38,381 nucleotides of DNA from the IMG/VR virus record IMGVR_UViG_2563366886_000002, positions 1-38,381 of that record. One strand, 5' to 3'. This DNA comes from a virus. Its lineage: Duplodnaviria; Heunggongvirae; Uroviricota; Caudoviricetes. The notes beneath the pieces were generated by a model, which was given only the letters and a program-made list of their open reading frames with translations, did no database searches and was not told the origin of the DNA. Position 1 is the first letter of the stretch, and each line of letters starts with the position of its first letter. The position numbers were made by a program, and so were the translations under genes. Shown here in pieces: positions 5,713-25,354 of this stretch.

Positions 5713-5786
5713 GCGTTGTTAGCTCAGCCGGACAGAGCAATTGCCTTCTAAGCAATCGGTCACTGGTTCGAATCCAGTACAGCGCG
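5713..5786 (+). tRNA. tRNA-Arg (anticodon UCU)
   Basis: Acceptor GCGTTGT/ACAGCGC (one GU pair), D arm GCTC..GAGC, anticodon stem ATTGC/GCAAT with loop CTTCTAA, T arm ACTGG-TTCGAAT-CCAGT; CCA not encoded. Confidence 0.8.
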
Positions 5787-5899
5787 CTATATTCATTCTT
5801 CCAGATTCCTTCCGGCAGAGCCTTATACTGAAATATACTTGGCTCAGGATCTTGTTGAAAATATTATATGTTTGTCAAAAATAAAAGTTCTGTTAAGTA

Positions 5900-6253: not shown

Positions 6254-6644
6254 ATACATATCTGGATTATCACTTGTTACGGTAAAAAGTGATTGCTTAC
6301 TGTTTTTGTGAATGGCATTGCAGCAGCCGGATAATGTCAGTGCTGGCTGACGGTGTGCTGGTGGCGGGTGTGGTGGTTATTGCTTTCCCGTTGCTGAAAA
6401 AGAAAACGCCAGACTGTTAGCCGGGTATCAGTTAGCGGGAGAAATTTTTAAATACTTCACAATTCAGGCGGTTGACTGTTGTCTGGTTTGCGGGGAGTTT
6501 GTTAAAAGAAACTGGCATGGTGAATCCCCCTGTGCGGAGGGGCAATCAGCGAGTAGGTATATGGGATAATCGCGGATTCAGGTGCTGGTACTGAATTCAC
6601 CGGGAGGCACCCGGCACCATGCAATGGCACATAGCGCCACTCTC

Positions 6645-6680
6645 CAGCCCCTCTCCGGAGGGGCTGTTTATATTGATTTT
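6645..6680 (+). terminator. rho-independent terminator (plus-strand oriented)
   Basis: CAGCCCCTC-TCCG-GAGGGGCTG 9-bp stem followed by TTTATATTGATTTT. Confidence 0.65.
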
Positions 6681-10766: not shown

Positions 10767-11249
10767 ATGTCTGGACCCCCGAAAACCCCGCCACGCCTGC
10801 ATTTGATACGAGGTAACCCCTCAAAGCGGCCAGTTAAAGACTCCAAAAAAACCGCTAAAAAGGATGAAAAAGGTCTCCCTAAAATTCCGCAACATTTAGG
10901 GGCGCAGGGGAAGTACTGGTTCAGGCGAATGGCGGAAGAGCTGAATGCGGAAGGGATCATTTCTCAGCTCGATGCACGTGCGCTCGAGTTACTGGTGGAA
11001 GCCTACACCGAATACCGGCATCACTGCGAAATACTCGATGTTGAGGGTTATACCTACCGCACGGAAACGCAGAATGGCGATGTGCTGATCAAGGCACACC
11101 CGGCTGCTGCGATGAAGGCTGATGCCTGGAAGCGGATTCGGGCGATGCTTGCAGAGTTTGGTATGTCACCGGCAAGCCGGGCGAAAGTAAATACCGCCGG
11201 ACCGGATGATGTTGATCCGCTGGCAGAGCTTTTAAAAGCGAGAGACTGA
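10767..11249 (+). CDS. terminase small subunit (P27 family), helper prophage
   Basis: 160-aa ORF between HNH and terL; stop overlaps terL start; P27-family-like composition. Confidence 0.7.
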   Translation: MSGPPKTPPRLHLIRGNPSKRPVKDSKKTAKKDEKGLPKIPQHLGAQGKYWFRRMAEELNAEGIISQLDARALELLVEAYTEYRHHCEILDVEGYTYRTETQNGDVLIKAHPAAAMKADAWKRIRAMLAEFGMSPASRAKVNTAGPDDVDPLAELLKARD

Positions 11250-12277
11250 TGGCAAAAGTGGCTGACGGGATCCGCTACGCCGAACGTGTTGTTGCAGGAG
11301 AAATTGTTGCTGGCGAATTTGTCCGTCTGGCCTGCCAGCGTTTTCTTGATGATCTGAAGTACGGCGAAGAGCGGGGGATTTATTTCAGTGAACCTCGTGC
11401 ACAGCACATCCTTAATTTCTACAAATTTGTACCCCATGTGAAAGGGGCGCTGGCAGGTCAGCCCATTGAGTTGATGGACTGGCATGTGTTTATCCTCATT
11501 AATATTTTTGGTTTTGTCATTCCGCTGGTGAATGAAGAAACCGGGGAAGTTGTCATGCGCAGCGATGGCAGTGGACGCCCGGTGATGGTGCGCCGGTTCC
11601 GGACAGCATACAACGAAGTTGCCCGTAAAAACGCAAAATCAACCCTGTCATCGGGTATCGGTCTGTATATGACGGGGGCAGATGGTGAAGGCGGGGCTGA
11701 GGTGTATTCAGCCGCAACCACGCGTGACCAGGCCAGAATTGTGTTTGAAGACGCCAAAAATATGGTCAGAAAAGCCCGGTCGACACTCGGGCGGTTGTTT
11801 GATTTCAACAAGCTGGCGATTTACCAGGAGCAGAGCGCATCAAAATTTGAACCGCTTTCCTCGGATGCAAACAACCTGGACGGTCTGAACATCCACTGCG
11901 CCATTATTGATGAGCTGCATGCTCATAAAACCCGTGACGTGTGGGACGTTCTGGAAACGGCAACCGGTGCCCGTCTGCAGTCTCTGTTATTTGGCATCAC
12001 CACGGCTGGCTTTAACAAGGAAGGGATTTGCTACGAGCAGCGCGATTACGCCATTAAGGTATTGCGAGGCTATAACAGCGACGTGGAGGGCGCGGTAAAA
12101 GACGACTCCTACTTTGCGATCATTTACACGCTCGATGAGGGAGATGATCCGTTTGATGAAACGGTCTGGCAGAAAGCGAATCCTGGCCTGGGCATCTGTA
12201 AACGCTGGGATGATCTGCGTCGTCTGGCGAAAAAAGCGAAGGAGCAGGTCTCTGCGCGGGTGAATTTTTTTACCAAG
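11249..12277 (+). CDS. terminase large subunit, N-terminal (ATPase) portion only; interrupted by the inserted element
   Basis: MAKVADGIRYAERVV...KANPGLGICKRWDDLRRLAKKAKEQVSARVNFFTKK aligns by eye with residues 1 to about 330 of the intact terL at 25338..26999; frame then reads through the att junction into int. Confidence 0.8.
12263..12277. repeat. attL core (left junction of inserted element)
   Basis: AATTTTTTTACCAAG; 12/15 identical to AATATTCTTACCAAA at 27508..27522, with a 7-bp identical core TTACCAA; both copies in the terL reading frame. Confidence 0.6.
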
Positions 12278-12406
12278 AAAGTAACATCACGCCGTAACAA
12301 CAGTGCGACCTGTCCTGATTTTTTTAGTAACCAAATGAAAGAAAAAGATTTTTTTCTTGTTCGTCGTTTTTGTTTTTTCTGGAAGGTTCTGGCTGTTTTC
12401 ATCATT

Positions 12407-12429
12407 TGTGTATTGCACTGTGTATTGCA
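12407..12429 (+). repeat. tandem direct repeats (candidate integrase arm-type sites / int promoter), left arm
   Basis: TGTGTATTGCA c TGTGTATTGCA 20 bp upstream of the int ATG; related GTGTATTGC pair at 27419..27439. Confidence 0.5.
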
Positions 12430-12448
12430 AAAACGGGTTATAAATCAC

Positions 12449-13671
12449 ATGGCGCTAAACAAACTGAGCGATAAAAAACTTCGTTCCCTGCTTGGACGCA
12501 GGAGTGAGAGGCAGGAAACCATCGCTGATGGTAACGGGCTTTCGGTACGGGTCAGTAAATACGGATGTGTTAGTTTTGTTTTCTTTTACAGACTGGCGGG
12601 AAGGGAAACCGCGCCCATCTGGCTGACACTTGGAAAATATCCTGATCTGAGTCTCAAATCAGCGAGAGAGATGCGCGATCAGTGTCGAACTTGGCTTGCG
12701 GAGGGCAGAGATCCACGGATTCAGATAAAAATTGAACGGGAAGCCACCTTGCAACCTGTTACCGTTCGTGAGGCACTTGAATACTGGCTTGATAATTATG
12801 CAATGGATAAGCGTAGGGGAGCAGAACATATCAGGCAGTGCTTTGGTAAACATATTTATCCGGTGATTGGTCATGTACCACTTAGTGATTGCTCTATATC
12901 TATGTGGATTAAGTGTTTTGACAAAATAAAAAAAGTAGCACCTGTACAGGCCGGAGCTTTGTTGCGTATATCAAAACAGGCGCTTAAATTTTGTAGGGTA
13001 AGAAAATACGCGATTAGTCATGAAATTGATGATCTTGAGGTCTGTGATGTGGGAAAAAAGTCTGCGCGAAGAAGCAGGGTTTTAACAGATGATGAAATCA
13101 GAGATTTATGGCGAAGTATTAATACTGATTATGACAATCACGAATTATCATATGAAAACCGAATTATTTTACGTTTCCTGGTAGTTTTTGGTTGTCGACT
13201 GTCAGAAGTATTACTGTCGTCCTGGGTAGAGTGGGATTTTGATAAGAAATTATGGCGCGTTCCCGCTGATCATAGCAAAAATGGCAGGGAAATAATCAGA
13301 CCGATTCCTGATGGCATGTTTAACTGGTTAGTTACGTTAAAAAAATAACAGGTAACAAAGAAAATGTGATTGGGTTTGATATGCGTCAGTGTACGGCAAG
13401 CGTAACTATCGGTAAGACATGGAAAAGGATGAAACACTCGGAGAAATGGACGGCGCATGATATGCGAAGAGTGTTTGCCACAAAACTAAGTGATCATGGT
13501 TTTGAACATAATGTGGTTGAACAGTTGCTTGGGCACACATTAGGCGGTGTTGCCGGGGTTTATAACAGAAGCCAGTATATGGACAGAAAAAAAGAAGCTA
13601 TGAACTGGTGGTACGACTATCTGAATAAGCAAATTAGTGGTGACAGTAATGATTCAAATAGTTACGCGTGA
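12449..13671 (+). pseudogene. int: tyrosine integrase (P4-like), reading frame split by a frameshift at an A7 run
   Basis: N part MALNKLSDKKLRSLLGRRSERQETIADGNGLSVRV... ends TAA at 13346..13348; catalytic C part (..WTAHDMRRVFATKLSD..LLGH..VYNRSQY) continues in the -1 frame (13366..13671); A7 run at 13339..13345. Confidence 0.6.
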
Positions 13672-13870
13672 AGAACTTGAAAATGATGAAACAATCGACA
13701 GGATGATTAAGGAAGATGAATGTGCATGGTTAACCGCTCTTGGCAGGAGACACAGATCGTTACTTGAAAAGGAAGGAAAATTTCCACGAAAAATATGTAT
13801 TGGCCCACAAACAAAAGTCTGGCGCTTATCTGAGGTGCTGGAATGGGTAAAAGGTGAATGGAAACCCTGA
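13637..13870 (+). CDS. AlpA-family DNA-binding protein (excisionase/regulator-like)
   Basis: ...ECAWLTALGRRHRSLLEKEGKFPRKICIGPQTKVWRLSEVLEWVKG resembles AlpA helix-turn-helix; start uncertain (several Met). Confidence 0.55.
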   Translation: MVTVMIQIVTREELENDETIDRMIKEDECAWLTALGRRHRSLLEKEGKFPRKICIGPQTKVWRLSEVLEWVKGEWKP

Positions 13871-13895
13871 GCTAAATTAAATGAGATATAATCAA

Positions 13896-13918
13896 CCCGT
13901 CTTTTGGCGGGTTTTTTT
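13896..13918 (+). terminator. rho-independent terminator
   Basis: CCCGTC-TTTT-GGCGGG hairpin plus T7. Confidence 0.6.
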
Positions 13919-13933
13919 ATAGGTGATATTTTT

Positions 13934-14212
13934 ATGCAAAAATTTATTTATCCTACACCCGAAGAACGCATTCAGATTCTGAAAGATCATGGCGAACCGT
14001 ATGATCGCCGTATACGCGAACATGAGTGTGCCAATCGTACCGGGCTTTCAAGAAGCAGACGTTGGGTACTTGAACAGGAGGGAGCATTTCCTGCTCGTGC
14101 TCATTTAGGGAAAGTGTCTGTTTCCTGGTTGCTCTCTGATGTGCTCTGGTGGGTTATGCATCCGCCAGGAGTAAAGGAAGTAAACAGCCCATACAAAAAC
14201 GCCAATAAGTAA
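13934..14212 (+). CDS. second AlpA-like DNA-binding protein
   Basis: AGGTGA RBS; MQKFIYPTPEERIQILKDHGEPYDRRIREHECANRTGLSRSRRWVLEQEGAFPARAHLGKVSVSWLLSDVLWWV. Confidence 0.55.
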   Translation: MQKFIYPTPEERIQILKDHGEPYDRRIREHECANRTGLSRSRRWVLEQEGAFPARAHLGKVSVSWLLSDVLWWVMHPPGVKEVNSPYKNANK

Positions 14213-14233
14213 TTACCGACAACCCCGCACCAC

Positions 14234-14261
14234 GCAATGCGGGGTTTTTTGTATGTGAGGT
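14234..14261 (+). terminator. rho-independent terminator
   Basis: CCCCGCA-CCACGCAA-TGCGGGG plus TTTTTT. Confidence 0.7.
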
Positions 14262-14269
14262 AAAAAGCA

Positions 14270-14848
14270 ATGAATAAAAATATTGCCGTGACGGGCAAGG
14301 GTGACGCACGTCATGTGAAAAAATTCTGTGATATTCGTGATCTGGTCGTTCTGCGCTTTGATGGCGTGGATGTTCGTGTGGTGTATCTAAACGGCGATCC
14401 GTGGTTTGTTGCAAAGGATGTTTGTGCTGCGCTGGAACTGACCAATTCGCGTACGGCGTTGCAGATGCTTGATGATGACGAAAAGGGAGTAAATTTAACT
14501 TACACCCCCGGAGGAAATCAGAATATGAGCATTATCTCCGAATCAGGTTTCTACAAACTAATAGCCCGCAGCCGCAAAGCAACGACGCCTGGCACATTTG
14601 CTCATCGTTTCAGTAACTGGGTATTCAGAAATGTGATACCGGGTATCAGAAAAACGGGGGCTTATGGTATCCCGTGGGGCGCATTACAGGATTTTTCCCG
14701 CCGCAAAGAGCAATACCAGATAAGTGCCAGTGAGAAGGGGAGGGAGCTACAGGCATGTAAGCGCAAAAAGCGTGAGCTGGAGGAAGAAGAAAAAAGGCTG
14801 ATACGTGAATACCAGCCTGAGTTTTACTTTGGTGAGCGTATTCAGTAA
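14270..14848 (+). CDS. Bro-N domain protein (antirepressor-like)
   Basis: N-terminal VRVVYLNGDPWFVAKDVCAALELTNSRTALQMLDDDEKG typical of Bro-N/AntA N-terminal domains; charged coiled-coil C-terminus. Confidence 0.6.
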   Translation: MNKNIAVTGKGDARHVKKFCDIRDLVVLRFDGVDVRVVYLNGDPWFVAKDVCAALELTNSRTALQMLDDDEKGVNLTYTPGGNQNMSIISESGFYKLIARSRKATTPGTFAHRFSNWVFRNVIPGIRKTGAYGIPWGALQDFSRRKEQYQISASEKGRELQACKRKKRELEEEEKRLIREYQPEFYFGERIQ

Positions 14849-15126
14849 CCACACGCGGTGTTGATTATACGGTACATCGTGTTGACCGGGAAGCTACCCA
14901 CCAGCAAGGCAAAATCTTCTGCTAAAAAATGACATATGACCAGTCGTCCGGAAAGCATGAAATTTTACAAAAATGGAAAATGAAGATTTTTATTGTGCTG
15001 GTGGGTAAAAACAAAAAGCGCCCCGTTGCCGGAGCGCCCTTGCGAACAATTAACCTACTGCGCAAAAAATGAATATAAGCTGTGGAATTATATCAGACAG
15101 GTGACGAAGCGCCACTATTGCCGGAT

Positions 15127-15162
15127 AACAGGCAAAACAAAGGCGACCGCAAAAGGGTCGCC
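15127..15162 (-). terminator. rho-independent terminator for the leftward regulator operon
   Basis: GGCGACC-GCAAAAG-GGTCGCC perfect 7-bp stem; T-rich on the reverse strand (TTGTTTTGCCTGTT). Confidence 0.6.
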
Positions 15163-15228
15163 AGTGGGAACAAGGGAAAACAAAAGCATCACCAACAATG
15201 CCACATTTGCGGCTGGTGGGCAATGTGA

Positions 15229-15417
15229 TCAGTCAGATTTGGTTCGTTCCAAGGTTTGCAACGAGAGCTTTTTCCTGCGCTCTTTAAGGAATTTCTCAAG
15301 AGCAAACGAACAAGGTGCGAATCTTTCTGATTCATGCTCTATCTTTCTGCGCCGTCTTTTCCGTGTCGGTGATAATGTTTTGGTCAATTCTTTATCGGTC
15401 ATTGTGTTGTCCTGCAT
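15229..15417 (-). CDS. small basic hypothetical protein (62 aa)
   Basis: Reverse-strand ORF MQDNTMTDKELTKTLSPTRKRRRRKIEHESERFAPCSF...; downstream of the repressor-like gene, upstream of the reverse terminator. Confidence 0.35.
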   Translation of the reverse strand: MQDNTMTDKELTKTLSPTRKRRRRKIEHESERFAPCSFALEKFLKERRKKLSLQTLERTKSD

Positions 15418-15459
15418 AGCAATGCGCCGTAGTTACTCACACCACGGCGCTGATAGTGA

Positions 15460-15657
15460 TTATTCTGATTCTTTGGCCTTCCGGCGCTGTTCATATTTTA
15501 ATTTGCGTCCACAGGCATCTAAGACCCATGCGGAAAAATTAGCACTAGGATTAGTTAATTTTTCTTGTTCAACGCTGGCATCAATCCCATCTATAAGCTC
15601 ATGTGGGAATCGAATATTTTTCTTTGCTGATTTGTTGTTTGTGTTACCGCTAGACAT
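15460..15657 (-). CDS. small putative DNA-binding protein; candidate element repressor
   Basis: 65-aa reverse-strand ORF MSSGNTNNKSAKKNIRFPHELIDGIDASVEQEKLTNPSANFSAWVLDACGRKLKYEQRRKAKESE; divergent from, and adjacent to, the palindromic operator-promoter. Confidence 0.4.
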   Translation of the reverse strand: MSSGNTNNKSAKKNIRFPHELIDGIDASVEQEKLTNPSANFSAWVLDACGRKLKYEQRRKAKESE

Positions 15658-15725
15658 TGATGCACCTCACTTAAATGGACTTTATGGGCGCACACAATAC
15701 AGCAAAAAAAATGAGATGTTAAGTA

Positions 15726-15764
15726 TTGACATGTGCGCACACATGATTTTAATCTGTGCGCACA
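15726..15764 (+). promoter_or_regulatory. rightward early promoter of the element overlapped by two palindromic operators
   Basis: TTGACA (15726..15731) and TTTAAT -10 candidates; two perfect 10-bp palindromes TGTGCGCACA at 15732..15741 and 15755..15764, 23 bp centre to centre; degenerate third copy GCGCACACA at 15689..15696. Confidence 0.6.
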
Positions 15765-15862
15765 GTTTGAGTTTTGTCACTCAAATTAAGCAACGCCCCG
15801 CAGTGCTCGCAACACATGCAGGGCGTCTAACCACCAACGATAGCAAGAGTATCGAGGTAGCT

Positions 15863-16066
15863 ATGAGAAATCATACCACACACCCGCAAGGGCGGGACTC
15901 GCACAACCTGAATAAATATATCTGGCGTTTTATCGCCCTGAGCACGGCACAACCGCGCGTGATTACCATTGAGGCCACCAGCGAACAGGAAGCACGCCAG
16001 CAATCCCCGGCTGGCTGCGTGATGGTATTCGCCGCCCGTATTCGTCAGGGGGTACACCATGATTAA
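15863..16066 (+). CDS. hypothetical protein (67 aa), first gene of the rightward operon
   Basis: MRNHTTHPQGRDSHNLNKYIWRFIALSTAQPRVITIEATSEQEARQQSPAGCVMVFAARIRQGVHHD; stop overlaps next start. Confidence 0.45.
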   Translation: MRNHTTHPQGRDSHNLNKYIWRFIALSTAQPRVITIEATSEQEARQQSPAGCVMVFAARIRQGVHHD

Positions 16067-16271
16067 CCTGTCACTTACCGACCTTAACCGCATCCAGTTT
16101 CGTGAGAAATTCACCGGGCAGTTGCTAGTCAATGTGGATAAAGGTCGCGTGGTGAGTAATTACCACCTGCCAGATGAAGCAATTGTCGCAACAAGGGAAT
16201 CATTACAGGAACTCGCAGAGCGTGTCGGAATGATTAACGCGAATATTCAGGGGGGGGTGAGCCATGCATGA
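16059..16271 (+). CDS. hypothetical protein (70 aa)
   Basis: Start-coupled ORF MINLSLTDLNRIQFREKFTGQLLVNVDKGRVVSNYHLPDEAIVATRESLQELAERVG. Confidence 0.45.
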   Translation: MINLSLTDLNRIQFREKFTGQLLVNVDKGRVVSNYHLPDEAIVATRESLQELAERVGMINANIQGGVSHA

Positions 16272-16497
16272 TATTTACAATGACACAGTAGATCATGCAT
16301 ACAGCGCACTTGCTTACAGTGAAAACATGCTTGAAATATTGCGCTTATGGCTTGAAACGCTTGGCGATAATGAAAGAGATAAACGCAACAGCAATATTGC
16401 AACAGCATTAATAACGCTTCTTGAGCCTGTAATAAATGAACTGCAAGAAATAGACATCTTGCACGACAGATATAAAGAGCAACACACCGGGAAATAA
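16264..16497 (+). CDS. hypothetical protein (77 aa)
   Basis: Start-coupled ORF MHDIYNDTVDHAYSALAYSENMLEILRLWLETLGDNERDKRNSNIATALITLLEPVINELQE. Confidence 0.45.
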   Translation: MHDIYNDTVDHAYSALAYSENMLEILRLWLETLGDNERDKRNSNIATALITLLEPVINELQEIDILHDRYKEQHTGK

Positions 16498-16502
16498 AAA
16501 CC

Positions 16503-16802
16503 ATGAAACAGAAAATTTCTGGCTTTACTGCCAGCGGCCCCGCTCGGCCTGAAATCCGCCCCGGCGATATTTTCCGGGATAACTACGGCGGCACGGTAAC
16601 GATTAAAAGCGTGGCGGGACGGTGCGTTACTTACCGCCGTGATGGGTACGGCTATGACTGCGTGATGCCTGTTTATCAGTTCCGGCGTGATTTTTCTCTG
16701 GTACAGAACGCAACACGCGGTAAGCCCACCAGCAGGGAAAAAGCACGGGAAAATATTAAGAAAATAAAAAGCATGCTCAGCGCATCCAGAGGTAAAAAAT
16801 GA
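16503..16802 (+). CDS. hypothetical protein (99 aa)
   Basis: MKQKISGFTASGPARPEIRPGDIFRDNYGGTVTIKSVAGRCVTYRRDGYGYDCVMPVYQFRRDF...; stop overlaps the rep start (ATGA). Confidence 0.45.
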   Translation: MKQKISGFTASGPARPEIRPGDIFRDNYGGTVTIKSVAGRCVTYRRDGYGYDCVMPVYQFRRDFSLVQNATRGKPTSREKARENIKKIKSMLSASRGKK

Positions 16803-18919
16803 AACTGGCACCGAACGTAAAACTGTTACCGAAAGATAAAGGCGAGGATGCAGTGATTTTTGCGGGGGATGACGCATACAGCCACGCAGAGCATTACATG
16901 CAGGGCGGAGAAGCCAGAAAGCGCGGCGACAAAATACCACCTGTTTATCTCGGGCGGCGTGACCTGGGTAATCTGGAAAACCTGCGTATTGTGGATGATG
17001 GACGGTTACGCGCCATGGTCAGACGTGCCGGAAAGCTGGATGACAGACAGGCGTTACAGATTGAAACCCTGCTGGCAGTGGCTGGTGTTAAGGAAGCCAG
17101 TTTTTGTGACGAGAACGGTGAACTACTGGAGGACTGGACACCGCAGCTTGCCCGGCTGAAAGACGAATACGAGCGCGGGGAAAGTCTGGTGTTGCCCTTA
17201 AAGAAAAAAATCACAGAAAGCCAGGGCGATGATGAATTAAAGCCCCGCGTTGAAAGTCGCGCCGATGGTGTTTTCTGGGTAACGCCCAAAGTTGACAAGC
17301 AGTCAGGCGAAATTATCCGGCCTGAGACGTGGTTATGTTCCCCGCTTGAACTACTGGGAACGGGGACAATCGGCAAAGAGCATTACCGCGTGATGCGCTG
17401 GAAGAAACCCGCAAACCATGAAGTCATCACAATGGCGGTTCCGTGCGGGGGCATTGGCGACCGTGACGGCTGGCGGTTGCTGAAAGACCACGGCCTTAAC
17501 GTAACAACTAACGGCAAATACAGGGCTATCCTGGCTGACTGGATGCAGTTAAGCGGAAACCATGAGGAATGGCAGTTAAGCACAACAACGGGCTGGCATT
17601 TTGGTGCGTACATCATGCCGGACGGTTCAGTCATTGGTGAGTCTGAAAAACCGATCCTGTTTACCGGAAAAACGGCTGCCGTTAATGGCTATTCTGTGGC
17701 AGGAACGGCGGAGGGCTGGCGCGATACCGTTGCGCGGCTGGCTGGTGGTAATCCGTCCATGATGCTGGGTGTGGCGGTATCGTTATCCGCACCATTAATC
17801 GGGCTGGTGGGTGCTGACGGCTTCGGGGTACATCTTTTCGAACAGTCATCGGCAGGGAAAACCACCACACAGAACATCGCATCCAGTTTATGGGGAGAGC
17901 CGGACGCGCAACGGCTGACCTGGTACGGTACAGCGTTAGGCATCGCCAACGAGGCAGAGGCGCACAATGACGGGCTATTACCCCTGGATGAAATAGGTCA
18001 GGCCGGAAACGCGCGGGAAGTGTCCACGTCGGCTTATACGCTGTTTAACGGTTCGGGGAAATTACAGGGGGCGAAGGACGGCGGCAACAGGGAGATCAAA
18101 CACTGGCGCACGGTGGCAATCAGCACCGGAGAAATGGACGTTGAGACATTCCTCAAAACGGAGGGGATAAAAGTCAAGGCGGGGCAGCTTGTCCGCCTGC
18201 TTAACGTGCCAATGGAAAAAGCCACGCAGTTTCACGAATACAGCACCGGAAAGGCACACGCAGACGCGTTAAAGGATGCCTGGACAGAAAATCACGGGGC
18301 GGCGGGGCGTGAATGGGTTAAATGGCTGGCAGACCACCAGCAGGAGGCAAAGGATACGGTAAGGGCATGCCGTGAACGGTGGCGCAACCTGATACCGGAG
18401 AGTTACGGCGAACAGGTTCACCGTGTGGGGGAACGATTCGCCATGCTGGAGTCGGCGCTGGTGCTTTCCGTCCATATTACTGGTTGGGATGTTCAGGCGT
18501 GCCGCGATGCCATTCAGCATAATTTTAATGCCTGGGTGAAGGAGTTCGGCACGGGTAACAGGGAGTTTAAACAGATGGTTGAACAGGCAGAGGCTTTTTT
18601 AGCGTCGTTCGGATTCAGCAGATACCTTCCGTGGCCCAACACCGACGAGCGTGATTTACCGATTAAAGAGCTTGCCGGATACAGAAAGGGGAGTATCAGA
18701 AACGAAGATGACGAGTTCCGTTTTTACACGTTCCCGCATGTATTTGAGGGTGAGATAGCACAGGGATTTAATCCGTCTCACTTTGCCCGCGCGTTGAGTG
18801 CTGCCGGAATGCTGGAAGCGGGTAACGATCGCCGTTACAAGAAAAAGGCGCTCGGCAAAATTGGGGGGAAGCAGCATGTTTTTTACGTGCTGATGTTCCA
18901 GCCTGAGGCAGAAGATTAA
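16799..18919 (+). CDS. replication protein, DUF927-type P-loop NTPase (primase/helicase-like) of the element
   Basis: 706-aa ORF with Walker A GxxxxGKT (SSAGKTTTQN); followed immediately by an iteron cluster; architecture typical of satellite/PICI replication genes. Confidence 0.6.
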   Translation: MKLAPNVKLLPKDKGEDAVIFAGDDAYSHAEHYMQGGEARKRGDKIPPVYLGRRDLGNLENLRIVDDGRLRAMVRRAGKLDDRQALQIETLLAVAGVKEASFCDENGELLEDWTPQLARLKDEYERGESLVLPLKKKITESQGDDELKPRVESRADGVFWVTPKVDKQSGEIIRPETWLCSPLELLGTGTIGKEHYRVMRWKKPANHEVITMAVPCGGIGDRDGWRLLKDHGLNVTTNGKYRAILADWMQLSGNHEEWQLSTTTGWHFGAYIMPDGSVIGESEKPILFTGKTAAVNGYSVAGTAEGWRDTVARLAGGNPSMMLGVAVSLSAPLIGLVGADGFGVHLFEQSSAGKTTTQNIASSLWGEPDAQRLTWYGTALGIANEAEAHNDGLLPLDEIGQAGNAREVSTSAYTLFNGSGKLQGAKDGGNREIKHWRTVAISTGEMDVETFLKTEGIKVKAGQLVRLLNVPMEKATQFHEYSTGKAHADALKDAWTENHGAAGREWVKWLADHQQEAKDTVRACRERWRNLIPESYGEQVHRVGERFAMLESALVLSVHITGWDVQACRDAIQHNFNAWVKEFGTGNREFKQMVEQAEAFLASFGFSRYLPWPNTDERDLPIKELAGYRKGSIRNEDDEFRFYTFPHVFEGEIAQGFNPSHFARALSAAGMLEAGNDRRYKKKALGKIGGKQHVFYVLMFQPEAED

Positions 18920-18941
18920 CCCCCTGTGTGAGGTGAAAAGT

Positions 18942-19066
18942 TGCGGGTTATGCGGGTTATCCTGTGTATAAGTGCATTAACTGTATGAATAAAAAGGAAA
19001 TCAGTAACCCGCACGTAACCCGCAAAACGGCAGTTATAACCCGCAAAAGTGCGATTATAACCCGCA
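18942..19066. repeat. iteron cluster (candidate origin of replication of the element)
   Basis: 9-mer TGCGGGTTA twice in tandem (18942..18959), AT-rich spacer, then inverted copies TAACCCGCA at 19005, 19016, 19037, 19058. Confidence 0.65.
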
Positions 19067-19129
19067 GAATTTCACCGTAAGGGTGTAAACAAGCGTAACA
19101 ATCAACGTTAAAACCGGAGAACAGACAGC

Positions 19130-19555
19130 ATGACAGCACAGATAGCGGCTTACGGGCGGCTGGTGGCTGACCCGCAGTTAAAGACCACCAGCAAGGGGAC
19201 ACAAATGGCTATGGCGAGTATGGCGGTTCCCCTGCCGTGCAGCCAGGCAGATGACGGAACGGCGACGATGTGGTTATCCGTCCTGGCGTTTGGCAGACAG
19301 GCCGATGCACTGGCAAAACACCAGAAAGGCGAACTGGTGAGTGTGGCGGGTAACATGCAGGTAAGCCAGTGGACAGGCCAGAACGGCGAAATGCGGCAGG
19401 GCTGGCAGGTCATCGCAGACAGCGTAATCAGTGCGCGAACGGCGCGACCGGGCGGCAAAAAAGGCCAGCAGGGCCAGGCTACTGACGCACTGAACAGGGC
19501 AAAACAACAGACAGGCCAGCACGATGATCCGTACGGGGACGGGATACCGTTTTAA
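19130..19555 (+). CDS. ssb: single-stranded DNA-binding protein
   Basis: OB-fold-like N-terminus (IAAYGRLVADPQLKTTSKGTQMAMASMAV), Gly/Gln-rich linker, acidic tail ending DDPYGDGIPF (SSB-type DIPF tail); GGAGAA RBS. Confidence 0.7.
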   Translation: MTAQIAAYGRLVADPQLKTTSKGTQMAMASMAVPLPCSQADDGTATMWLSVLAFGRQADALAKHQKGELVSVAGNMQVSQWTGQNGEMRQGWQVIADSVISARTARPGGKKGQQGQATDALNRAKQQTGQHDDPYGDGIPF

Positions 19556-19570
19556 GCAGTGAGGTACAGC

Positions 19571-19867
19571 ATGATTAAAGACAGCAAAGCGGAAGAACTG
19601 GAGGCTAAAGGGCTGTACCGGAGAGCGGCGGCACGTTGGGCTGATGTTATGTGGCTGGTGAGCACTGACAAGGAGCGCGAACAGGTGGCAAAGCGTCGCG
19701 CGGAATGTATCCGTAAGGCAGCGCGCCAACCAGTCATACCGGATAATTTCGGAATACTGAAAGAGGCCATAAACCGCACACATACCGGGATGGGCTTACA
19801 GAAACCTGGCGGTGAGATGTTCAGGAACTACCCGAAAAAAAAGGGGATAATTGATAACGGTTGTTAA
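19571..19867 (+). CDS. PerC-family transcriptional regulator-like protein
   Basis: MIKDSKAEELEAKGLYRRAAARWADVMWLVSTDKEREQVAKRRAECIRKA resembles PerC/Pch proteins as recalled; GAGG RBS. Confidence 0.45.
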   Translation: MIKDSKAEELEAKGLYRRAAARWADVMWLVSTDKEREQVAKRRAECIRKAARQPVIPDNFGILKEAINRTHTGMGLQKPGGEMFRNYPKKKGIIDNGC

Positions 19868-19899
19868 CTGTTTCTGGTATCGTGGTAGCAGGAGGAAAC

Positions 19900-20148
19900 A
19901 TGCCTGTGACATTTGAAGAAGTTCAGCAACATAAAAAGTTTCATGGTTTTGATGATCTGGAAACCACGACAGCAAAAAAATATCGCCGTCTGCTTTCTTC
20001 CGATGCGTTGTTTGTTGTGGATCATCATGATTTTCTGCGCAGCTCACTGACCGGGGAAATTTTCGCAACCAACCGTGAGCAGGTGGAAGCGATGATCGAA
20101 TACCTGTGGAAACTAAGAAGCAGAATGCGGGATCCCGTGAAACGGTAA
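19900..20148 (+). CDS. hypothetical protein (82 aa)
   Basis: AGGAGG RBS; MPVTFEEVQQHKKFHGFDDLETTTAKKYRRLLSSDALFVVDHHDFLRSSLTGEIFATNREQVEAMIEYLWKLRSRMRDPVKR. Confidence 0.45.
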   Translation: MPVTFEEVQQHKKFHGFDDLETTTAKKYRRLLSSDALFVVDHHDFLRSSLTGEIFATNREQVEAMIEYLWKLRSRMRDPVKR

Positions 20149-20157
20149 AATGATAAA

Positions 20158-20185
20158 GGCCTGGTAAAATCCAGGCCATTTTTTT
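20158..20185. terminator. terminator hairpin between convergent genes
   Basis: GGCCTGG-TAAAAT-CCAGGCC followed by ATTTTTTT on the plus strand. Confidence 0.65.
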
Positions 20186-20690
20186 ACAGTAAGCCTATTA
20201 AGGCACTTGCGCCAGCCCCAACAATGCTGGCAACGGTACTGTTTTCCAGTAACTGCTTTAATACTGATTTGGCTTGTACATCCCCCGATTTAGAGACTTT
20301 TTCAACCAGTTCAGTGATGCTGATGTTTACCAGCATATGGTTATGCTCACCTATCTGCACTTGATTACCACTAATTGAACCAATGTTAAATGTATTACTT
20401 TTAGGTGGCGTCATATGTTCATTTCCCGTGATATTTTCAATATAGAGCGTCAACATATTTGGATGGTTGGTTCCCTGTCTGAGGGTTCCATTGGGAAGCA
20501 ACTTCATATCTATAATTTTTAGATTTATCTCGTTTTTACCGACACACTGGATAATGTGTTGACCAATAGTTACTTCCGGTTCATTTGTATATGGAATTAA
20601 TACCTTGTTTTCTTTTGCGTTTCTTTTACCTTTAAATGATTCGCCATTAATTATGAAAGTATCAGGGTATACCATTGCGCTTAAATTCAT
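20184..20690 (-). CDS. AT-rich accessory protein of unknown function (168 aa) with hydrophobic Gly/Ala-rich C-terminal tail
   Basis: Reverse-strand ORF MNLSAMVYPDTFIINGESFKGKRNAKENKVLIPYTNEPEV...NSTVASIVGAGASALIGLL; AAAGGA RBS; markedly lower GC than the flanking modules; own upstream region and terminator. Confidence 0.5.
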   Translation of the reverse strand: MNLSAMVYPDTFIINGESFKGKRNAKENKVLIPYTNEPEVTIGQHIIQCVGKNEINLKIIDMKLLPNGTLRQGTNHPNMLTLYIENITGNEHMTPPKSNTFNIGSISGNQVQIGEHNHMLVNISITELVEKVSKSGDVQAKSVLKQLLENSTVASIVGAGASALIGLL

Positions 20691-20976
20691 GATGCGTCCT
20701 TTGTTGTAGTCAGAGGTAGCAATAATAGGCCATGGTTTACTTCTTTTGTAAATTATTTGTTCGTGTTTTTTCGTGGTTGTTCGGCCTTACTGACAGGTGT
20801 TTACATACTGATTTTTATGTATATGTTGGCGTGTGGCACTCAGACGTGAGCCGCCACAATGCCGCCTGACCCCCTGCGCGATGCCGGGTTGATCTGCGAG
20901 ATGCCGAGAGTGTCGGGCGGCGCTCCCTCCGTGTTGGTTTCACGTCCTGAATCTTAACCAATACGAGAAAACCTTC

Positions 20977-22146
20977 ATGAAGAAATTAATCGAACTCCGC
21001 CAGCAAAAAACCGCCCTGAAAAACCAGATGCGATCCCTGCTGGAAAAAGCCGACAGTGAAAACCGCAGCCTGAACGATGACGAGGGCAAACAGTTTGATG
21101 AACTGCGTGCAAAAGCCGATTCCCTCGACACAGAAATTTCCCGCCTCGAGTCTGTGGCTGATGAAGAACGCAGCAAGCCAGGAACGGGCATCCAGAAATT
21201 ATCATCTGATGAATTGCGTAACTACATCGTAACCGGAGATGTGCGATCACTGACCACCAGCACTGACAGCGGCAGGGATGGCGGATATACCGTAATTCCT
21301 GAGCTTGATCGCGAAGTCATGCGCCAGCTACAGGATGACAGTGTTATGCGCGTGATCGCGACCGTGAAGACCGCAAAATCAAATGAGTTTCAGAAACTGG
21401 TTTCCACTGGCGGCGCAACTGTAGGACGAGGCACAGAAGGCAGCGCACGTAGTGAAACCAACACCCCGAAAATTGAACGTGTAACCATCAAGCTGAATCC
21501 GATCTACGCCTACCCGAAAACCACGCAGGAAATCCTGGATTTTTCAGAGGTGGATATTCTGGGCTGGTTATCCTCCGAAATTGCCGACACGTTCGCCAGC
21601 ACCGAAGAGGATGATTTTGTTAATGGCGACGGTAACGGCAAGCCGAAAGGCTTCATGGCTTACACCCGTGCGGCGACCAGTGACAAAACCCGCGCTTTTG
21701 GCACCATTGAAAAAGTGGTAGCGGCAAGTGGAACCGCCATTACAGCGGACGAACTGATCGACATTCTCTACAAGCTGAAAGCGAAATACCGCAAAAATGC
21801 CGTCTGGGTGATGAACTCGGGCACGGCAGGGACACTACAGAAGCTGAAAAATGAGAATGGCGATTATATCTGGCGCGACAGCCTTAAAGAAGGTGCGCCG
21901 GATATGTTGCTTGGTCGTCCTGTTTTCTGCCTGGAGTCCATGCCGGACATCGGCGCAGGAAAAGCACCGCTAGCGGTTGGCGATTTCAGTCGTGGTTATT
22001 TCATCGTTGATCATGTAACAGGGATTCGCACCCGACCGGACAACATTACTGAACCCGGATTCTACAAGGTCCACACGGATAAATATCTGGGCGGTGGTGT
22101 GGTGGATTCAAACGCCATCAAAATTCTGGAAATGAAAGCTGGCTAG
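20977..22146 (+). CDS. major capsid protein, HK97 fold (element copy)
   Basis: 389-aa ORF with N-terminal coiled-coil delta-domain-like region then capsid-like body; paralogous by eye to the helper capsid at 30232..31449. Confidence 0.75.
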   Translation: MKKLIELRQQKTALKNQMRSLLEKADSENRSLNDDEGKQFDELRAKADSLDTEISRLESVADEERSKPGTGIQKLSSDELRNYIVTGDVRSLTTSTDSGRDGGYTVIPELDREVMRQLQDDSVMRVIATVKTAKSNEFQKLVSTGGATVGRGTEGSARSETNTPKIERVTIKLNPIYAYPKTTQEILDFSEVDILGWLSSEIADTFASTEEDDFVNGDGNGKPKGFMAYTRAATSDKTRAFGTIEKVVAASGTAITADELIDILYKLKAKYRKNAVWVMNSGTAGTLQKLKNENGDYIWRDSLKEGAPDMLLGRPVFCLESMPDIGAGKAPLAVGDFSRGYFIVDHVTGIRTRPDNITEPGFYKVHTDKYLGGGVVDSNAIKILEMKAG

Positions 22147-22200
22147 TCATGAGTAAGGAGGAGGCTGCGGCCTCCTTTTTCAGCTTTATGGAGTACACCG

Positions 22201-22761
22201 ATGAAAAACACCGATTTTGAAATCCGCACATCTGAACTGACCGCCAGCAATAAAAAGCTGGTGGGGTATGCCGTTCGCTGGAACAGCCTTTCAGAAATTA
22301 TCTGGGACGAATTCCGCGAACAGTTCACGCCGGGGGCTTTTGCTGACTATCTGGCGGCGGGTAATGATGTGCGCTGCCTGTATGAGCATGACTATACCCA
22401 ACTGCTGGGGCGCACCAAATCCGGCACTCTGGTACTGACTGGGGACAACACCGGGCTACGTTTTGAACTGACACCGCCTGATACCCAGCTTGGAAAAGAT
22501 GTGCTCACGCTGGTGTCGCGTGGCGACATTACAGGAATGAGCTTTGGCTTTCGCGCATTATGCGAAGAATGGAATATCGCGCAAAAACCGTATTTGCGTA
22601 CCGTAACCGCCGCTGAACTCCGAGAAATCACAATAACGTCGATGCCTGCTTATCCAGAATCTGGCGTGGAGATTGCCCACCGTTCGTTGTTTGCACAGCA
22701 CCCTGAATTACGCCCGGCAGGAAATAATCGTCATCGCTGGGCTGAACTGGCGGGGTTGTGA
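22201..22761 (+). CDS. prohead protease, HK97 family (element copy)
   Basis: 186-aa ORF between capsid and portal; resembles the helper protease at 29618..30217. Confidence 0.7.
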   Translation: MKNTDFEIRTSELTASNKKLVGYAVRWNSLSEIIWDEFREQFTPGAFADYLAAGNDVRCLYEHDYTQLLGRTKSGTLVLTGDNTGLRFELTPPDTQLGKDVLTLVSRGDITGMSFGFRALCEEWNIAQKPYLRTVTAAELREITITSMPAYPESGVEIAHRSLFAQHPELRPAGNNRHRWAELAGL

Positions 22762-22762
22762 T

Positions 22763-23977
22763 ATGTGGTGGCCTTTTAGTCGTAAAAAAAGCGAGCAACG
22801 TAACCTGTCCATTGATGATTTTCTGGCGCTGTCCGGCGTACCGAATACCGGATCCGGAGAATATGTTTCTGCCGGGACGGCTGAATCATTGCCTGCTGTG
22901 ATGAACGCGGTTTCTGTCATCGCTGAGGCGGTGGCCACGATGCCGTGTTATCTGTATCTGGTACGTAATGACAAGGGCAGGGAGGCGCGGGAATGGCTGG
23001 ACAGTCATCCGGTAGATATTCTGCTGAATGAGCAGCCTAATTCGTGCCAGACACCTTACCAGTTTAAACGCACAATGATGCGTCACTGTCTGCTGAACGG
23101 TAACGCCTATGCGGTTATTGAGTGGGGGCAGGACGGGCAGCCAAAATCACTTCATCCTTATGCGCCGGGGTGTGTTGTACCGGAACGCACAGGCGCACAC
23201 AAATACCGCTATACCATCACCGAACCCTGTACAGGAACGGTGCGCACGTATTTACAGGAAGAAGTTCTGCATCTCCGCTATGCCTCGGATGATGGCTTTC
23301 TGGGGCGCTCCCCTGTCACGATTTGCCGTGAGGCGCTGGGGCTTGGCCTTGCTCAACAGCGCCACGGAGCCAGCATTATGAAAGATGGCATGATGGCGGC
23401 AGGGATTATCACGTCAGGCGAATGGCTGGACGGCGTGAAAGGTAAACAGGCATTAGACGCACTGGAACGCTACAAGGGGGCGAAAAATGCCGGAAAAACG
23501 CCAATCCTTGAAGGGGGCATGGATTACAAGCAACTGGGAATGAGTAACCAGGATGCTGAATGGCTGGCCTCCCGTCGCTTCTCCATTGAAGACATTGCCC
23601 GTATGTTCAACGTGTCGCCGATTTTTCTTCAGGAATACAGCAACAGCACCTACAGCAATTTCAGTGAGGCAAGCCGCGCGTTTCTGACTATGACAATGCG
23701 TCCGTGGCTGGCGAACTTCGAACAGCAAATCAAGGCCGCTTTGCTGGTGGCTTCTCCCGTACCTGGTACCCGTTATCTGGTTGAGTTTGATTCAGCCGAT
23801 TTACTGCGCGCCACCCCTACCGAACGTTACGCCACGTATGAGAAAGGGATTAAGAACGGGATCATGAATCCGAACGAAGCCCGTGAGCGTGAGGGAATGC
23901 CGCCGCGTGAAGGTGGCGACGAGTTCAGCCAGGCATGGAAGCAGACTGTGGAAATTAAAGGTGAAAAAGATGAGTGA
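22763..23977 (+). CDS. portal protein, HK97 family (element copy)
   Basis: 404-aa ORF MWWPFSRKKSEQRNLSIDDF...; conserved stretches shared with the helper portal (e.g. FLQEYSNSTYSNFSEASRAFLTMTMRPWLANFEQQ vs FSNITQQAIQFVRYTMMPWVANWEQE). Confidence 0.8.
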   Translation: MWWPFSRKKSEQRNLSIDDFLALSGVPNTGSGEYVSAGTAESLPAVMNAVSVIAEAVATMPCYLYLVRNDKGREAREWLDSHPVDILLNEQPNSCQTPYQFKRTMMRHCLLNGNAYAVIEWGQDGQPKSLHPYAPGCVVPERTGAHKYRYTITEPCTGTVRTYLQEEVLHLRYASDDGFLGRSPVTICREALGLGLAQQRHGASIMKDGMMAAGIITSGEWLDGVKGKQALDALERYKGAKNAGKTPILEGGMDYKQLGMSNQDAEWLASRRFSIEDIARMFNVSPIFLQEYSNSTYSNFSEASRAFLTMTMRPWLANFEQQIKAALLVASPVPGTRYLVEFDSADLLRATPTERYATYEKGIKNGIMNPNEAREREGMPPREGGDEFSQAWKQTVEIKGEKDE

Positions 23978-24269
23978 AGACAAAATTACACCTGATGAAG
24001 TCAGGGCACATCTTCGCCTTGATGACTTTTCCGGAGAAGGCGAACTTCTGAAAATGTATACCGATGCGGCGCTGGAAGCCTGCCAGAAGCATATCGGGAA
24101 ACGTTTTGAAGACGGGCTGGAATTTACCCCGGCAATACGTGTTGGTTGCCTGATGTACATCGCTTTCCTGTACGAGAACAGGGAAGCGGTTTCACCTGTG
24201 GAACAGTCTGAACTGCCTATGGCTATTTCTGCGCTCTGGTCGGTTTATCGTGATGTGGGGGTGTACTGA
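23970..24269 (+). CDS. head-tail connector protein (gp6-like), element copy
   Basis: MSEDKITPDEVRAHLRLDDFSGEGELLKMYTDAALEACQKHIGKRF...; start overlaps portal stop (ATGAGTGA). Confidence 0.6.
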   Translation: MSEDKITPDEVRAHLRLDDFSGEGELLKMYTDAALEACQKHIGKRFEDGLEFTPAIRVGCLMYIAFLYENREAVSPVEQSELPMAISALWSVYRDVGVY

Positions 24270-24709
24270 TGCCGTGGCAACCATTAAGGCGATGCACTGA
24301 GCCGGGCTGTAATAAGCGCGTGAAGTCCGGCAAGTGTGAAGAGCACAGGCGGGCTGCATGGCGTGCAGAGGATGCCAGACGGGGGCACCGCCGCGCGCGT
24401 GGGTATTCCCGGCAGTGGGACAAATACCGCGCCCTGTACCTGAGCAAAAACCCGTTATGCGTGCGTTGTCTGGCTAAGGGGATTTATACGCCAGCTCTTG
24501 TGGTGGATCACATCATTCCCATCAATGGCGGCGGTGATGTTCTCTTCTGGCCTGAGTGGAACCACCAGGCATTGTGCCAGACGTGCCACAACCGTAAGAC
24601 GACACGGGAAGATCCAGCCACGAAAGCGAACCGTAAGGCGGGCATGTATCGCGAGCAGGAAGAACGGGCGGCACATCGTAACGACTGGATGTATGGCGAT
24701 GATGACTGA
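24269..24709 (+). CDS. HNH endonuclease (element copy)
   Basis: CTEPGCNKRVKSGKCEEH ... VVDHIIPINGGGDVLFWPEWNHQALCQTCHNRKT; start overlaps connector stop. Confidence 0.8.
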   Translation: MPWQPLRRCTEPGCNKRVKSGKCEEHRRAAWRAEDARRGHRRARGYSRQWDKYRALYLSKNPLCVRCLAKGIYTPALVVDHIIPINGGGDVLFWPEWNHQALCQTCHNRKTTREDPATKANRKAGMYREQEERAAHRNDWMYGDDD

Positions 24710-24997
24710 ACAGGAGCAAAACAGGCTGATACGTGGACTGATAAGGCAGCGTGACTTATGGAAGACACAGGAGACAGGGCACAAAGTCAACAGGACAGGG
24801 CGCACAGAACGCACCACACCGAAGCGATTAACCGACCGTGACCGCGAGGTCATGGAATGTTTTCGCAATCGCTGGTGAGGCTGTCAGAGGGGGTGGGGGA
24901 GGTTTTCAGGACGAAACCGTCCCTGCCGGACACCGACCGCCTCCTCAAATTTTTGTGCACGGGAATTTTTTTGAAAATAATTGGGCGAAAAAAGAAC

Positions 24998-25354
24998 ATG
25001 GCAAGACCACCAAAAGCCCCCGCTTACCTGGATGAAATCGCGGTCAGGCAGTGGAAGGAAAAATCGCGCCAGCTTTCCGGGCGGGAAGACCTTACCCCCG
25101 CCGACTGGAGCAATCTGGAGCTGTATTGCGTTAACTACTCCATATACCGCAAAGCCGTCGAAGACCTTGCGACGCGCGGATTCAGCATTGTTAACAGTCA
25201 GGGCAGTGAGAGCAGAAACCCCGCCCTGAGCGCAAAGGCTGACGCAGAAAGAATAATGATCAAAATGGCTTCTTTGCTGGGTTTTGACCCGGTAAGCCGC
25301 CGCAGAAATCCACCGGAAACAGAGGAAGAGGACGAGCTTGACCGCCTGGCATGA
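24998..25354 (+). CDS. terminase small subunit (P27 family), element copy
   Basis: MARPPKAPAYLDEIAVRQWKEKSRQLSGREDLTPADWSNLELYCVNYSIYRKAVEDL...; precedes terL; start chosen by analogy to the helper terS. Confidence 0.65.
   Translation: MARPPKAPAYLDEIAVRQWKEKSRQLSGREDLTPADWSNLELYCVNYSIYRKAVEDLATRGFSIVNSQGSESRNPALSAKADAERIMIKMASLLGFDPVSRRRNPPETEEEDELDRLA

Follow-up and report, generated by a model that had tools for sequence, protein, structure and literature searches.

What does a small, low-GC gene on the reverse strand do between the replication and capsid modules of a phage satellite? The question is raised by a stretch of 38,381 nucleotides (IMG/VR virus record IMGVR_UViG_2563366886_000002, positions 1 to 38,381; 'the window' below is this whole stretch), which is Escherichia coli 042 sequence (NC_017626.1, approximately 2.22-2.26 Mb, reverse complement; identical). 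Strain 042 is an enteroaggregative E. coli and a human pathogen, and the satellite is of the capsid-forming phage-inducible chromosomal island (cf-PICI) type. The answer favored here, at a rough probability of 45%, is that the gene encodes an abortive-infection effector made of one chain, whose sensor domain would trigger amyloid assembly of the RHIM type, which in turn would free a membrane-inserting tail. An earlier note, made from the sequence alone, had proposed a single-gene defence or membrane-acting effector; it overlooked the RHIM-like motif, the modularity of the family and its strong tie to the cf-PICI cargo slot.

The gene and its product

RefSeq and Pfam bear out the description of the locus in that note as a 168-aa reverse-strand open reading frame (ORF) between the replication and capsid modules of the satellite. 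The ORF and the parts of its product are:

20184..20690, minus strand: complete ORF of 168 codons plus stop, ATG start (WP_001053661.1, member of PHROG 5789)
20415..20690, minus strand: N-terminal small beta-barrel, residues 1-92, presumed sensor or ligand-binding domain
20322..20396, minus strand: RHIM-like segment, residues 99-123, NTFNIGSISGNQVQIGEHNHMLVNI, with the core VQIG at 111-114
20241..20321, minus strand: two amphipathic helices, residues 124-150, SITELVEKVSKSGDVQAKSVLKQLLEN, with D137, A140, K141, L144 and N150 invariant
20187..20237, minus strand: C-terminal hydrophobic helix, residues 152-168, TVASIVGAGASALIGLL, presumed membrane-inserting element

The G+C content of the ORF is 37.3% (36% at third codon positions), compared with 45-60% for the neighboring genes, a difference that the note had rightly pointed out, and with 50.9% for the satellite. 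WP_001053661.1 is labeled 'hypothetical protein' in E. coli 042. That no family could be recognized holds as far as a named function is concerned, but not for the family itself: the profile of phrog_5789, which has no assigned function, matches end to end (residues 1-168 of 168, E 3.5e-86), and there is a sub-threshold Pfam match to RHIM. The 98 homologues found at E<=1e-3, all of them unnamed, come from Enterobacterales, Pseudomonas, Shewanella and Xanthomonas; with 18 invariant columns among them, this is a real gene under constraint and not a chance ORF.

An AlphaFold2 run with the family alignment predicted a confident seven-strand barrel for residues 1-90 (predicted local distance difference test (pLDDT) of the blocks 81-91), low confidence for approximately residues 91-120 (block means 46-57) and four short helices within residues 125-167 (pLDDT 66-85). 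High confidence for the barrel, low confidence over the motif and intermediate values for the terminal helices are as expected of a switch segment. The IPYT and GTxHP patches of the barrel are conserved, and R23, D61 and H76 are nearly invariant. The fold itself is generic, as PilZ and split-barrel proteins score nearly as well as phage neck/stopper proteins, and Foldseek found nothing at E<=0.001 among the BFVD viral structures.

The protein ends in ...NSTVASIVGAGASALIGLL. By mean Kyte-Doolittle value (1.91) its tail, TVASIVGAGASALIGLL, is the most hydrophobic 17-residue window of the protein, which agrees with the hydrophobic C-terminal tail noted before. One face of the tail follows a small-xxx-small 'glycine zipper' pattern (A154, G158, S162, G166); G158 and A159 are invariant, G160 is nearly so, and the tail is kept under all N-terminal variants.

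Similarity to the RHIM

The most conserved part of the protein is residues 99-123, FNIGSISGNQVQIGEHNHMLVNISI, for which the family pattern is FNIGSVSGxQVQIGxxNxxxVNISI. Within it I103, Q112, G114 and N117 are invariant and G108 nearly so (alignment A1, 35 sequences), and the motif Q, G and N each reach at least 90% across 50 proteins with unrelated N-termini. The core tetrad (I/V)-Q-(I/V)-G is present as VQIG (111-114). The sole Pfam match of the protein is to RHIM (PF12721; residues 109-119, 14.8 bits, E 0.021). Among ten 'long-type' relatives RHIM was the top Pfam match in nine and the only other match in the tenth; five of the ten passed the Pfam cut-off, namely P0240 (25.2 bits), P0214 (23.3), P0239 (22.8), P0217 (21.7) and P0243 (20.1). 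The long-type relatives read G-I-Q-I-G or G-V-Q-V-G exactly (e.g., NSTGVQVGNHN, NNSQGIQIGDNN and NSQGVQIGDYN).

In the reverse direction, 56 diverse C-terminal modules were combined into a profile, with which all 177,635 distinct PDB sequences were searched. RIPK1 RHIM fibril peptides (8ib0 and 9m6m) ranked first and second (E 0.029 and 0.033), and eight of the 11 best matches were RIPK1 or RIPK3 RHIM chains. HMMER pairs the module consensus nigsingenvqiGngNtqei with RIPK1 TI--FNSSGIQIGNHNYMDV, and the core of the target, QVQIGEHNHMLV, aligns to RIPK1 GIQIGNHNYMDV. As a sequence resemblance the likeness to RHIM is solid, because conservation of the segment, textbook motifs in distant relatives and the reverse PDB search add to the weak Pfam match.

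A C-terminal module under exchangeable N-domains

An exhaustive HMMER search of 1.84 billion representatives (E<=1e-3) found 249 representative clusters. Many of them match profile positions of approximately 90-168 alone, by which motif, helical hairpin (consensus …LVEKVAxSxDxEAKSxLKxLLEN…) and Gly-zipper tail are recognized as one module. The module sits beneath mutually dissimilar N-terminal regions, among them a Zn-ribbon, a weak DUF2513 match (3 of 50), apparently helical regions and regions of approximately 160 aa; none of the N-terminal regions checked gave an above-threshold Pfam match. One relative (P0097), encoded in exactly the corresponding slot of a further cf-PICI, joins this module to a largely different N-domain, and a few family members lack the motif and yet keep helices and tail. 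A constant C-terminal module under interchangeable small N-domains suggests the pattern of sensor-effector fusions in conflict systems; together with the Gly-zipper tail it also fits the membrane-acting effector that the earlier note had in mind. Stand-alone modules of 79 aa were not counted as minimal effectors, as at least one of them (P0260) represents just the end of a longer gene that is frameshifted.

In a two-gene variant a 254-aa protein (WP_244581917) is encoded immediately upstream of a 169-aa family member. The C-terminal part of the longer protein aligns to motif and helices (NIFNIATVNSQYVQLGTNNNINIQELSEFFLKIASTGEKE; hhalign 91.9%, E 6.8e-7) and ends without a hydrophobic tail; its N-domain looks, by eye, like that of P0153 and P0197, which bear the full tailed module. 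The gene pair recurs in 20 E. coli genomes, one Enterobacter soli satellite and six IMG/VR elements. Judged from their sequences, the 254-aa and 169-aa proteins are a possible receptor/executioner pair, and two adjacent genes with a common motif would carry the 'shared motif' signature of amyloid signaling. The slot with the 254-aa plus 169-aa operon was seen in L010 (1583-2886, NZ_CP148378.1) and also in L021, L043, L058, L059 and L062-L064.

A very weak Pfam match to EAD10 (E 0.099) was seen at residues 120-151 of another relative (P0230), where it overlaps the motif and the first helix. EAD10 is a domain class tied to the TPR-GreAB-C-PIN sensors of Bab/Agp (bioRxiv 10.1101/2024.11.07.622273), and the match is a possible distant link of the module to BASS11/EAD10.

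The cassette and its slot

The insertion and its surroundings comprise:

20184..20743: inserted cargo cassette, approximately 560 bp, from alignment with a related empty-slot satellite
20691..20743, minus strand: cassette-specific 5' leader, read from the sequence
20158..20177, both strands: GC-rich hairpin GGCCTGG-TAAAAT-CCAGGCC, which scores as a terminator either way and is common to the convergent 82-aa gene

Of the upstream region that the earlier note had ascribed to the gene, approximately 55 bp (20691-20743) belong to the cassette, but positions 20744-20976 are conserved in relatives with an empty slot and are therefore backbone, namely the upstream region of the capsid operon. The leader carries an AAGGA ribosome-binding site (complement of 20697-20701) and a -10-like TATTAT (complement of 20722-20727), while the -35-like TTTACA (complement of 20747-20752), at a spacer of 19 nt, falls in backbone DNA. 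A consensus scan found no minus-strand promoter with a spacer of 16-18 nt, so that the promoter of the cargo gene is putative and weak. No RNA family was found at the locus in Rfam and no antisense element was detected. The convergent hairpin does score as a terminator, as had been noted, but is not the cargo's own: since the empty-slot relative L008 has a similar one, the hairpin serves as terminator of the upstream, convergent gene and is shared by the cargo gene.

Comparison of the same slot in related elements, which the earlier note had called for, showed turnover, the slot being empty, filled by unrelated cargo or occupied by a family gene plus partner. Strain APEC17 has the empty state, with the capsid upstream region starting right after the 82-aa gene, and in strain 06-00048 the slot is filled by an unrelated 157-aa reverse-strand gene. 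The gene is missing from many otherwise near-identical satellites; conservation in all related elements together with a known role was checked for and was not found. Of 5,426 complete E. coli genomes, 51 have the close allele, and 25 more carry diverged alleles in which the DNA match is limited to query nt 26-213, encoding approximately residues 99-160, i.e., most of the C-terminal module. The unrelated slot cargo recorded at L009, 2126-2599 (NZ_CP015229.1), is a 157-aa reverse-strand protein (WP_001293446.1) without a Pfam match, and its gene is another candidate accessory gene.

At 38 of the 43 IMG/VR loci with a close family member the gene is divergent beside the capsid-protease-portal block, in elements of 12-19 kb; this cf-PICI slot placement spans capsid identities of 68-100% and different replication modules. 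Among one-genome-per-species contigs, four of 12 loci were such satellites, and the other eight were from Pseudomonas, Azomonas, Psychrobacter, Sulfurimonas and metagenome-assembled genomes (MAGs) of Helicobacteraceae, Kiritimatiellales and Flavobacteriaceae.

Genomic company and association with defence genes

In a P2-like prophage of Pseudomonas, one copy occupies the variable region next to the tail genes gpD, X and U and adjoins a gene with a weak HEPN match. Immediate neighbors match the PADLOC candidate families PDC-S60, PDC-S31 and PDC-S02 in Shewanella, Xanthomonas and a Helicobacteraceae MAG, and the 108 neighbors scanned included one PD-Lambda-2 pair and one methyltransferase. No conserved neighbor or antitoxin was found across the Pseudomonas, Xanthomonas, Shewanella and other loci. 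Single-gene defence, as put forward in the earlier note, is thus backed by association only, and the protein itself matches no PADLOC model. A search for literature on WP_001053661, its family or RHIM-like proteins in enterobacterial satellites found none, its coverage being incomplete and the absence no proof. The Gifsy prophage defence protein GiPD474 was considered and is an unrelated ATPase.

A 27%-identical member was observed in the lambdoid Escherichia phage vB_EcoM-689R6 (L012, 5001-5507), where it lies between Rz and the HNH/terminase genes. It has a degenerate motif (GDFQAGNDN), a weaker tail and late-gene orientation, and its placement is unlike the satellite slot.

Comparison with known systems

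RHIM proteins (PF12721; RIPK1, RIPK3, TRIF, ZBP1) have in common with the target the core (I/V)-Q-(I/V)-G followed by xxN-x-(M/L) and N/S/G-rich beta flanks. They differ in host, which is metazoan for RHIM and a bacterium with its phage satellite for the target, and in context, since RHIM links kinases and adaptors, whereas the motif of the target is fused to a membrane tail and its amyloid formation is putative. RHIM, the fungal PP motif and the bacterial motif BASS3 have the signature G-phi-Q-phi-G in common (Dyrka et al. 2020, bioRxiv 10.1101/2020.01.06.895854). BASS3 has been reported in multicellular Actinobacteria and Cyanobacteria, C-terminal on Bell domains and paired with NB-ARC/NACHT NOD-like receptors (NLRs) (bioRxiv 10.1101/2020.01.06.895854), and the restriction to multicellular bacteria was repeated in a 2026 review. 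The target resembles BASS3/Bell-NLR systems in that a RHIM-like motif in a prokaryotic protein is joined to a presumed membrane-targeting helical effector and in that adjacent genes may carry a common motif, as in the 254-aa plus 169-aa variant. In contrast to BASS3, the hosts of the target family are mostly unicellular Gammaproteobacteria; the motif lies within the protein, with the hydrophobic helix at the C-terminus, and the loci are mostly single-gene. The BASS3 arrangement of a motif on the effector and an adjacent NLR was not found, there being no NLR in the window, and the 254-aa partner seen in relatives is a non-NLR protein with an internal motif. No Pfam or PDB-sequence match to a HeLo, Hell or Bell effector domain was obtained, and the hydrophobic helix is C-terminal instead of N-terminal.

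Bab/Agp (BASS11) is an amyloid-controlled abortive-infection system of E. coli (Ibarlosa et al., bioRxiv 10.1101/2024.11.07.622273) and as such a precedent for the reading preferred here. In Bab four helices sheathe a hydrophobic helix at the N-terminus; amyloid conversion sets this helix free and activates damage to the membrane (bioRxiv 10.1101/2024.11.07.622273). Points of likeness are the host, the prophage-borne defence hotspots and the small size of a protein in which an amyloid motif (putative in the target) goes together with helices that sheathe a hydrophobic helix, presumed to line a pore; the Bab residues T85, I87-G88-S89-V90, Q92, D99 and N100 loosely resemble NIGSV..Q...N in a comparison limited to the residues named in that paper. 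However, the Bab motif is at the extreme C-terminus, its helix is N-terminal, it needs the 1094-aa TPR-GreAB-C-PIN sensor Agp, and the BASS11 family is described as separate from BASS3/RHIM. No TPR-GreAB-C-PIN neighbor is annotated beside the target, and the architecture of a Babybell domain with a C-terminal BASS11 motif was not found in it. In HET-S/NWD2 of Podospora anserina, amyloid folding of a short prion-forming segment beside the helical, pore-forming HeLo domain expels a hydrophobic helix into the membrane (bioRxiv 10.1101/2024.11.07.622273). The logic proposed for the target is the same, although there is no sequence or detected fold relationship, the order of the parts is reversed and the proposed sensor is in the same chain.

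Like the hotspot cargo of P4, P2 and PICI elements, the gene is low-GC cargo at a single polymorphic slot whose content changes among elements that are otherwise alike; one survey (PMC13612085) predicted no defence cargo in cf-PICIs. The protein would work like known amyloid-signaling effector families but is no member of them, because no Bell domain, NLR partner or BASS11 architecture was found and its own score stays below the RHIM threshold, though relatives pass it.

Proposed mechanism and alternatives

In the mechanism proposed, the satellite would carry the gene as a cargo cassette expressed in lysogeny. The barrel (residues 1-92) would detect an infection cue, in that it binds a phage product or is clustered by one. 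The RHIM-like segment (99-123), disordered in the resting monomer, would once triggered build a cross-beta (amyloid-type) oligomer. The helical hairpin (124-150) is presumed to shield or restrain the Gly-zipper helix (152-168), and as the last motif strand, VNISI, runs straight into helix 1, assembly would strain the hairpin and pull it apart. The freed and clustered tails may then insert into the inner membrane and depolarize or permeabilize it, and the infected cell would die ahead of phage release (abortive infection). This would be the logic of HET-S and Bab with the parts in reverse order and the receptor fused in cis; where it occurs, the 254-aa protein may be a second, tail-less sensor feeding the same executioner via the common motif. 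The ORF, the presence or absence of the cassette, the conservation and modularity of the family, the RHIM similarity, the hydrophobic tail, the low-confidence linker and the genomic company are observed directly, whereas amyloid formation, membrane insertion, trigger, toxicity and anti-phage effect are what we infer. A wider version is clearly more tentative, namely a one-polypeptide RHIM 'mini-necrosome' in unicellular Gammaproteobacteria with swappable sensors, spread by satellites and prophages as anti-phage cargo and sometimes split into a tail-less sensor and a tailed executioner that would communicate via their common motif. RHIM-type amyloid signaling has until now been known as an adaptor linking separate proteins, in animals, fungi and multicellular bacteria.

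Several observations weigh against an amyloid-controlled effector. The RHIM score of the target (14.8 bits) is below the Pfam gathering threshold of 20 bits, and the PDB E-values are marginal (0.03-0.7), the motif being short. The target signature, S-G-N-Q-V-Q-I-G, has two extra residues inside G-phi-Q-phi-G, and beta segments rich in N, Q, G and S can converge in sequence. A tail of only 17 residues is short for a membrane span, and the predicted promoter is weak. A motif hidden Markov model run over all six frames found no second motif copy in the window (ORF E 8.8e-10, next best 0.22); with no motif-bearing partner, a single chain must both sense and execute, which is unprecedented for RHIM/BASS. 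Finally, PADLOC-DB 2.0 returned 0 families for the protein at E<=10, and the cf-PICI slot placement at 38 of 43 IMG/VR loci could mean a satellite-specific job and not general defence.

That last observation also keeps alive a role in the satellite life cycle or in interference with the helper, in which the barrel would mimic a neck/stopper protein and engage the portal-connector complexes of helper or competitors; such a factor might redirect tails to the capsids of the satellite or link the completion of capsids to events at the membrane. This reading is doubtful, as the barrel fold is generic, no sequence-profile homology to phage neck/stopper (head-closure) proteins was found (probability 0.15% against the head-closure protein of the prophage) and BFVD gave no significant match. 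Moreover, the gene is absent from many near-identical satellites, is transcribed against the late operon and has counterparts outside satellites in Pseudomonas, Xanthomonas, Shewanella and Sulfurimonas chromosomes. Slightly better placed, though still unlikely, is a tail-anchored superinfection-exclusion protein of the inner membrane, which would be held there permanently by its C-terminal helix and whose cytoplasmic barrel would block DNA entry or an early step of incoming phages without an amyloid switch, the motif being a beta-hairpin linker. A reverse-strand, low-GC cassette in a lysogenic element and a single C-terminal hydrophobic segment would suit such a protein. So would the locations of two homologues, a distant one flanked by lysis genes and terminase genes in a lambdoid phage and a second one on a phage-like contig; such positions often house accessory genes, e.g., exclusion genes, in temperate phages. 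Exclusion does not account, however, for the strongest conservation in the family falling on the RHIM-like segment, nor for the tail-less protein with the motif that some elements co-encode, and an anchor at the C-terminus alone would put the whole protein in the cytoplasm, an odd geometry for blocking injection.

It is improbable that the protein is a membrane toxin acting in element maintenance, stress response or lysis timing without sensing phage. The hydrophobic Gly-zipper tail and carriage by mobile elements agree with a toxin, and one relative lies near HigBA-like and YafO-like genes and one directly after a lysis cassette, but there is no conserved adjacent antitoxin-like gene, no RNA family or antisense element at the locus, and swapping of N-domains is more typical of sensors than of toxins. 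The closeness of the core to mammalian RIPK1 and the pathogenicity of strain 042 for humans could also point to a mimic directed against an animal host, which would interfere with RIPK1/RIPK3 necroptosis like viral RHIM proteins. This is barely credible: no N-terminal signal peptide or secretion signal is evident, the tail would hold the protein in the bacterial membrane, environmental and plant-associated bacteria as well as MAGs have homologues, and the gene sits in phage-related cargo slots.

Host element and other features of the window

The element that carries the gene and the gene that flanks its slot are:

12278..27507, plus strand: cf-PICI-type satellite, approximately 15.2 kb, from RefSeq annotation and Pfam
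19900-20148, plus strand: 82-aa protein, phrog_1957 (no assigned function), flanking the cargo slot and convergent with the cargo gene

The gene order of the satellite is tyrosine integrase, two helix-turn-helix regulators, BRO-N, Icd-like, DUF4222, DUF927 primase, SSB, PerC, the 82-aa hypothetical protein, the cargo slot, HK97-type major capsid, prohead protease, portal, connector, HNH, TerS, TerL and origin-like iterons. Neither RefSeq annotation nor Pfam indicates tail or lysis genes in it, and its gene content follows the cf-PICI layout. The 82-aa gene flanks the slot in most related satellites checked, diverged ones included (41-100% identity, approximately 24 of 43 IMG/VR loci). Just past the satellite TerL, a patch of 37% G+C (27079-27233) holds three direct copies of TTGCGGGTTA at a spacing of 21-22 nt and, opposite these across an AT-rich stretch, three inverted copies, ATAACCCGC, at a spacing of 8-9 nt; the repeats look like an iteron-type replication origin of the satellite.

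Around the satellite lies a lambdoid prophage with antiterminator, tRNAs, hok/sok, lysis genes, HNH and TerS (annotation and Pfam). Its terL is split by the satellite into an N-terminal fragment (11249-12277) and a C-terminal fragment (27508-28251), both pseudogene pieces; the packaging enzyme of the resident prophage is thus disabled by the satellite, which brings its own TerS and TerL. No direct repeats (attachment sites) of at least 12 bp were found between the two satellite-junction windows compared. The accessory RNAs of the prophage, at 2370-2541, 5537-5612, 5713-5787 and 6486-6675, are the sok antitoxin RNA with hokD, two tRNAs and the small RNA STnc100, the last just upstream of the reverse-strand anti-adapter gene iraM. 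The tRNA with a CAT anticodon is assigned to Met by ARAGORN and to Ile by RefSeq, and is probably lysidine-modified.

Implications

If the proposed mechanism is true, a RHIM-like amyloid switch would become accessible to E. coli genetics as an easily tractable, 168-aa single-gene system, and would bear on whether the RHIM/PP/BASS3 motif is an ancient immune signaling device or a convergent sequence. Amyloid-controlled cell death would extend from receptor/effector pairs to a fused single chain with swappable sensors, the N-terminal variants being a ready library of candidate phage sensors on one read-out module. The cf-PICI satellites, for which one survey had predicted no defence cargo, would gain a recurrent candidate immune cargo.

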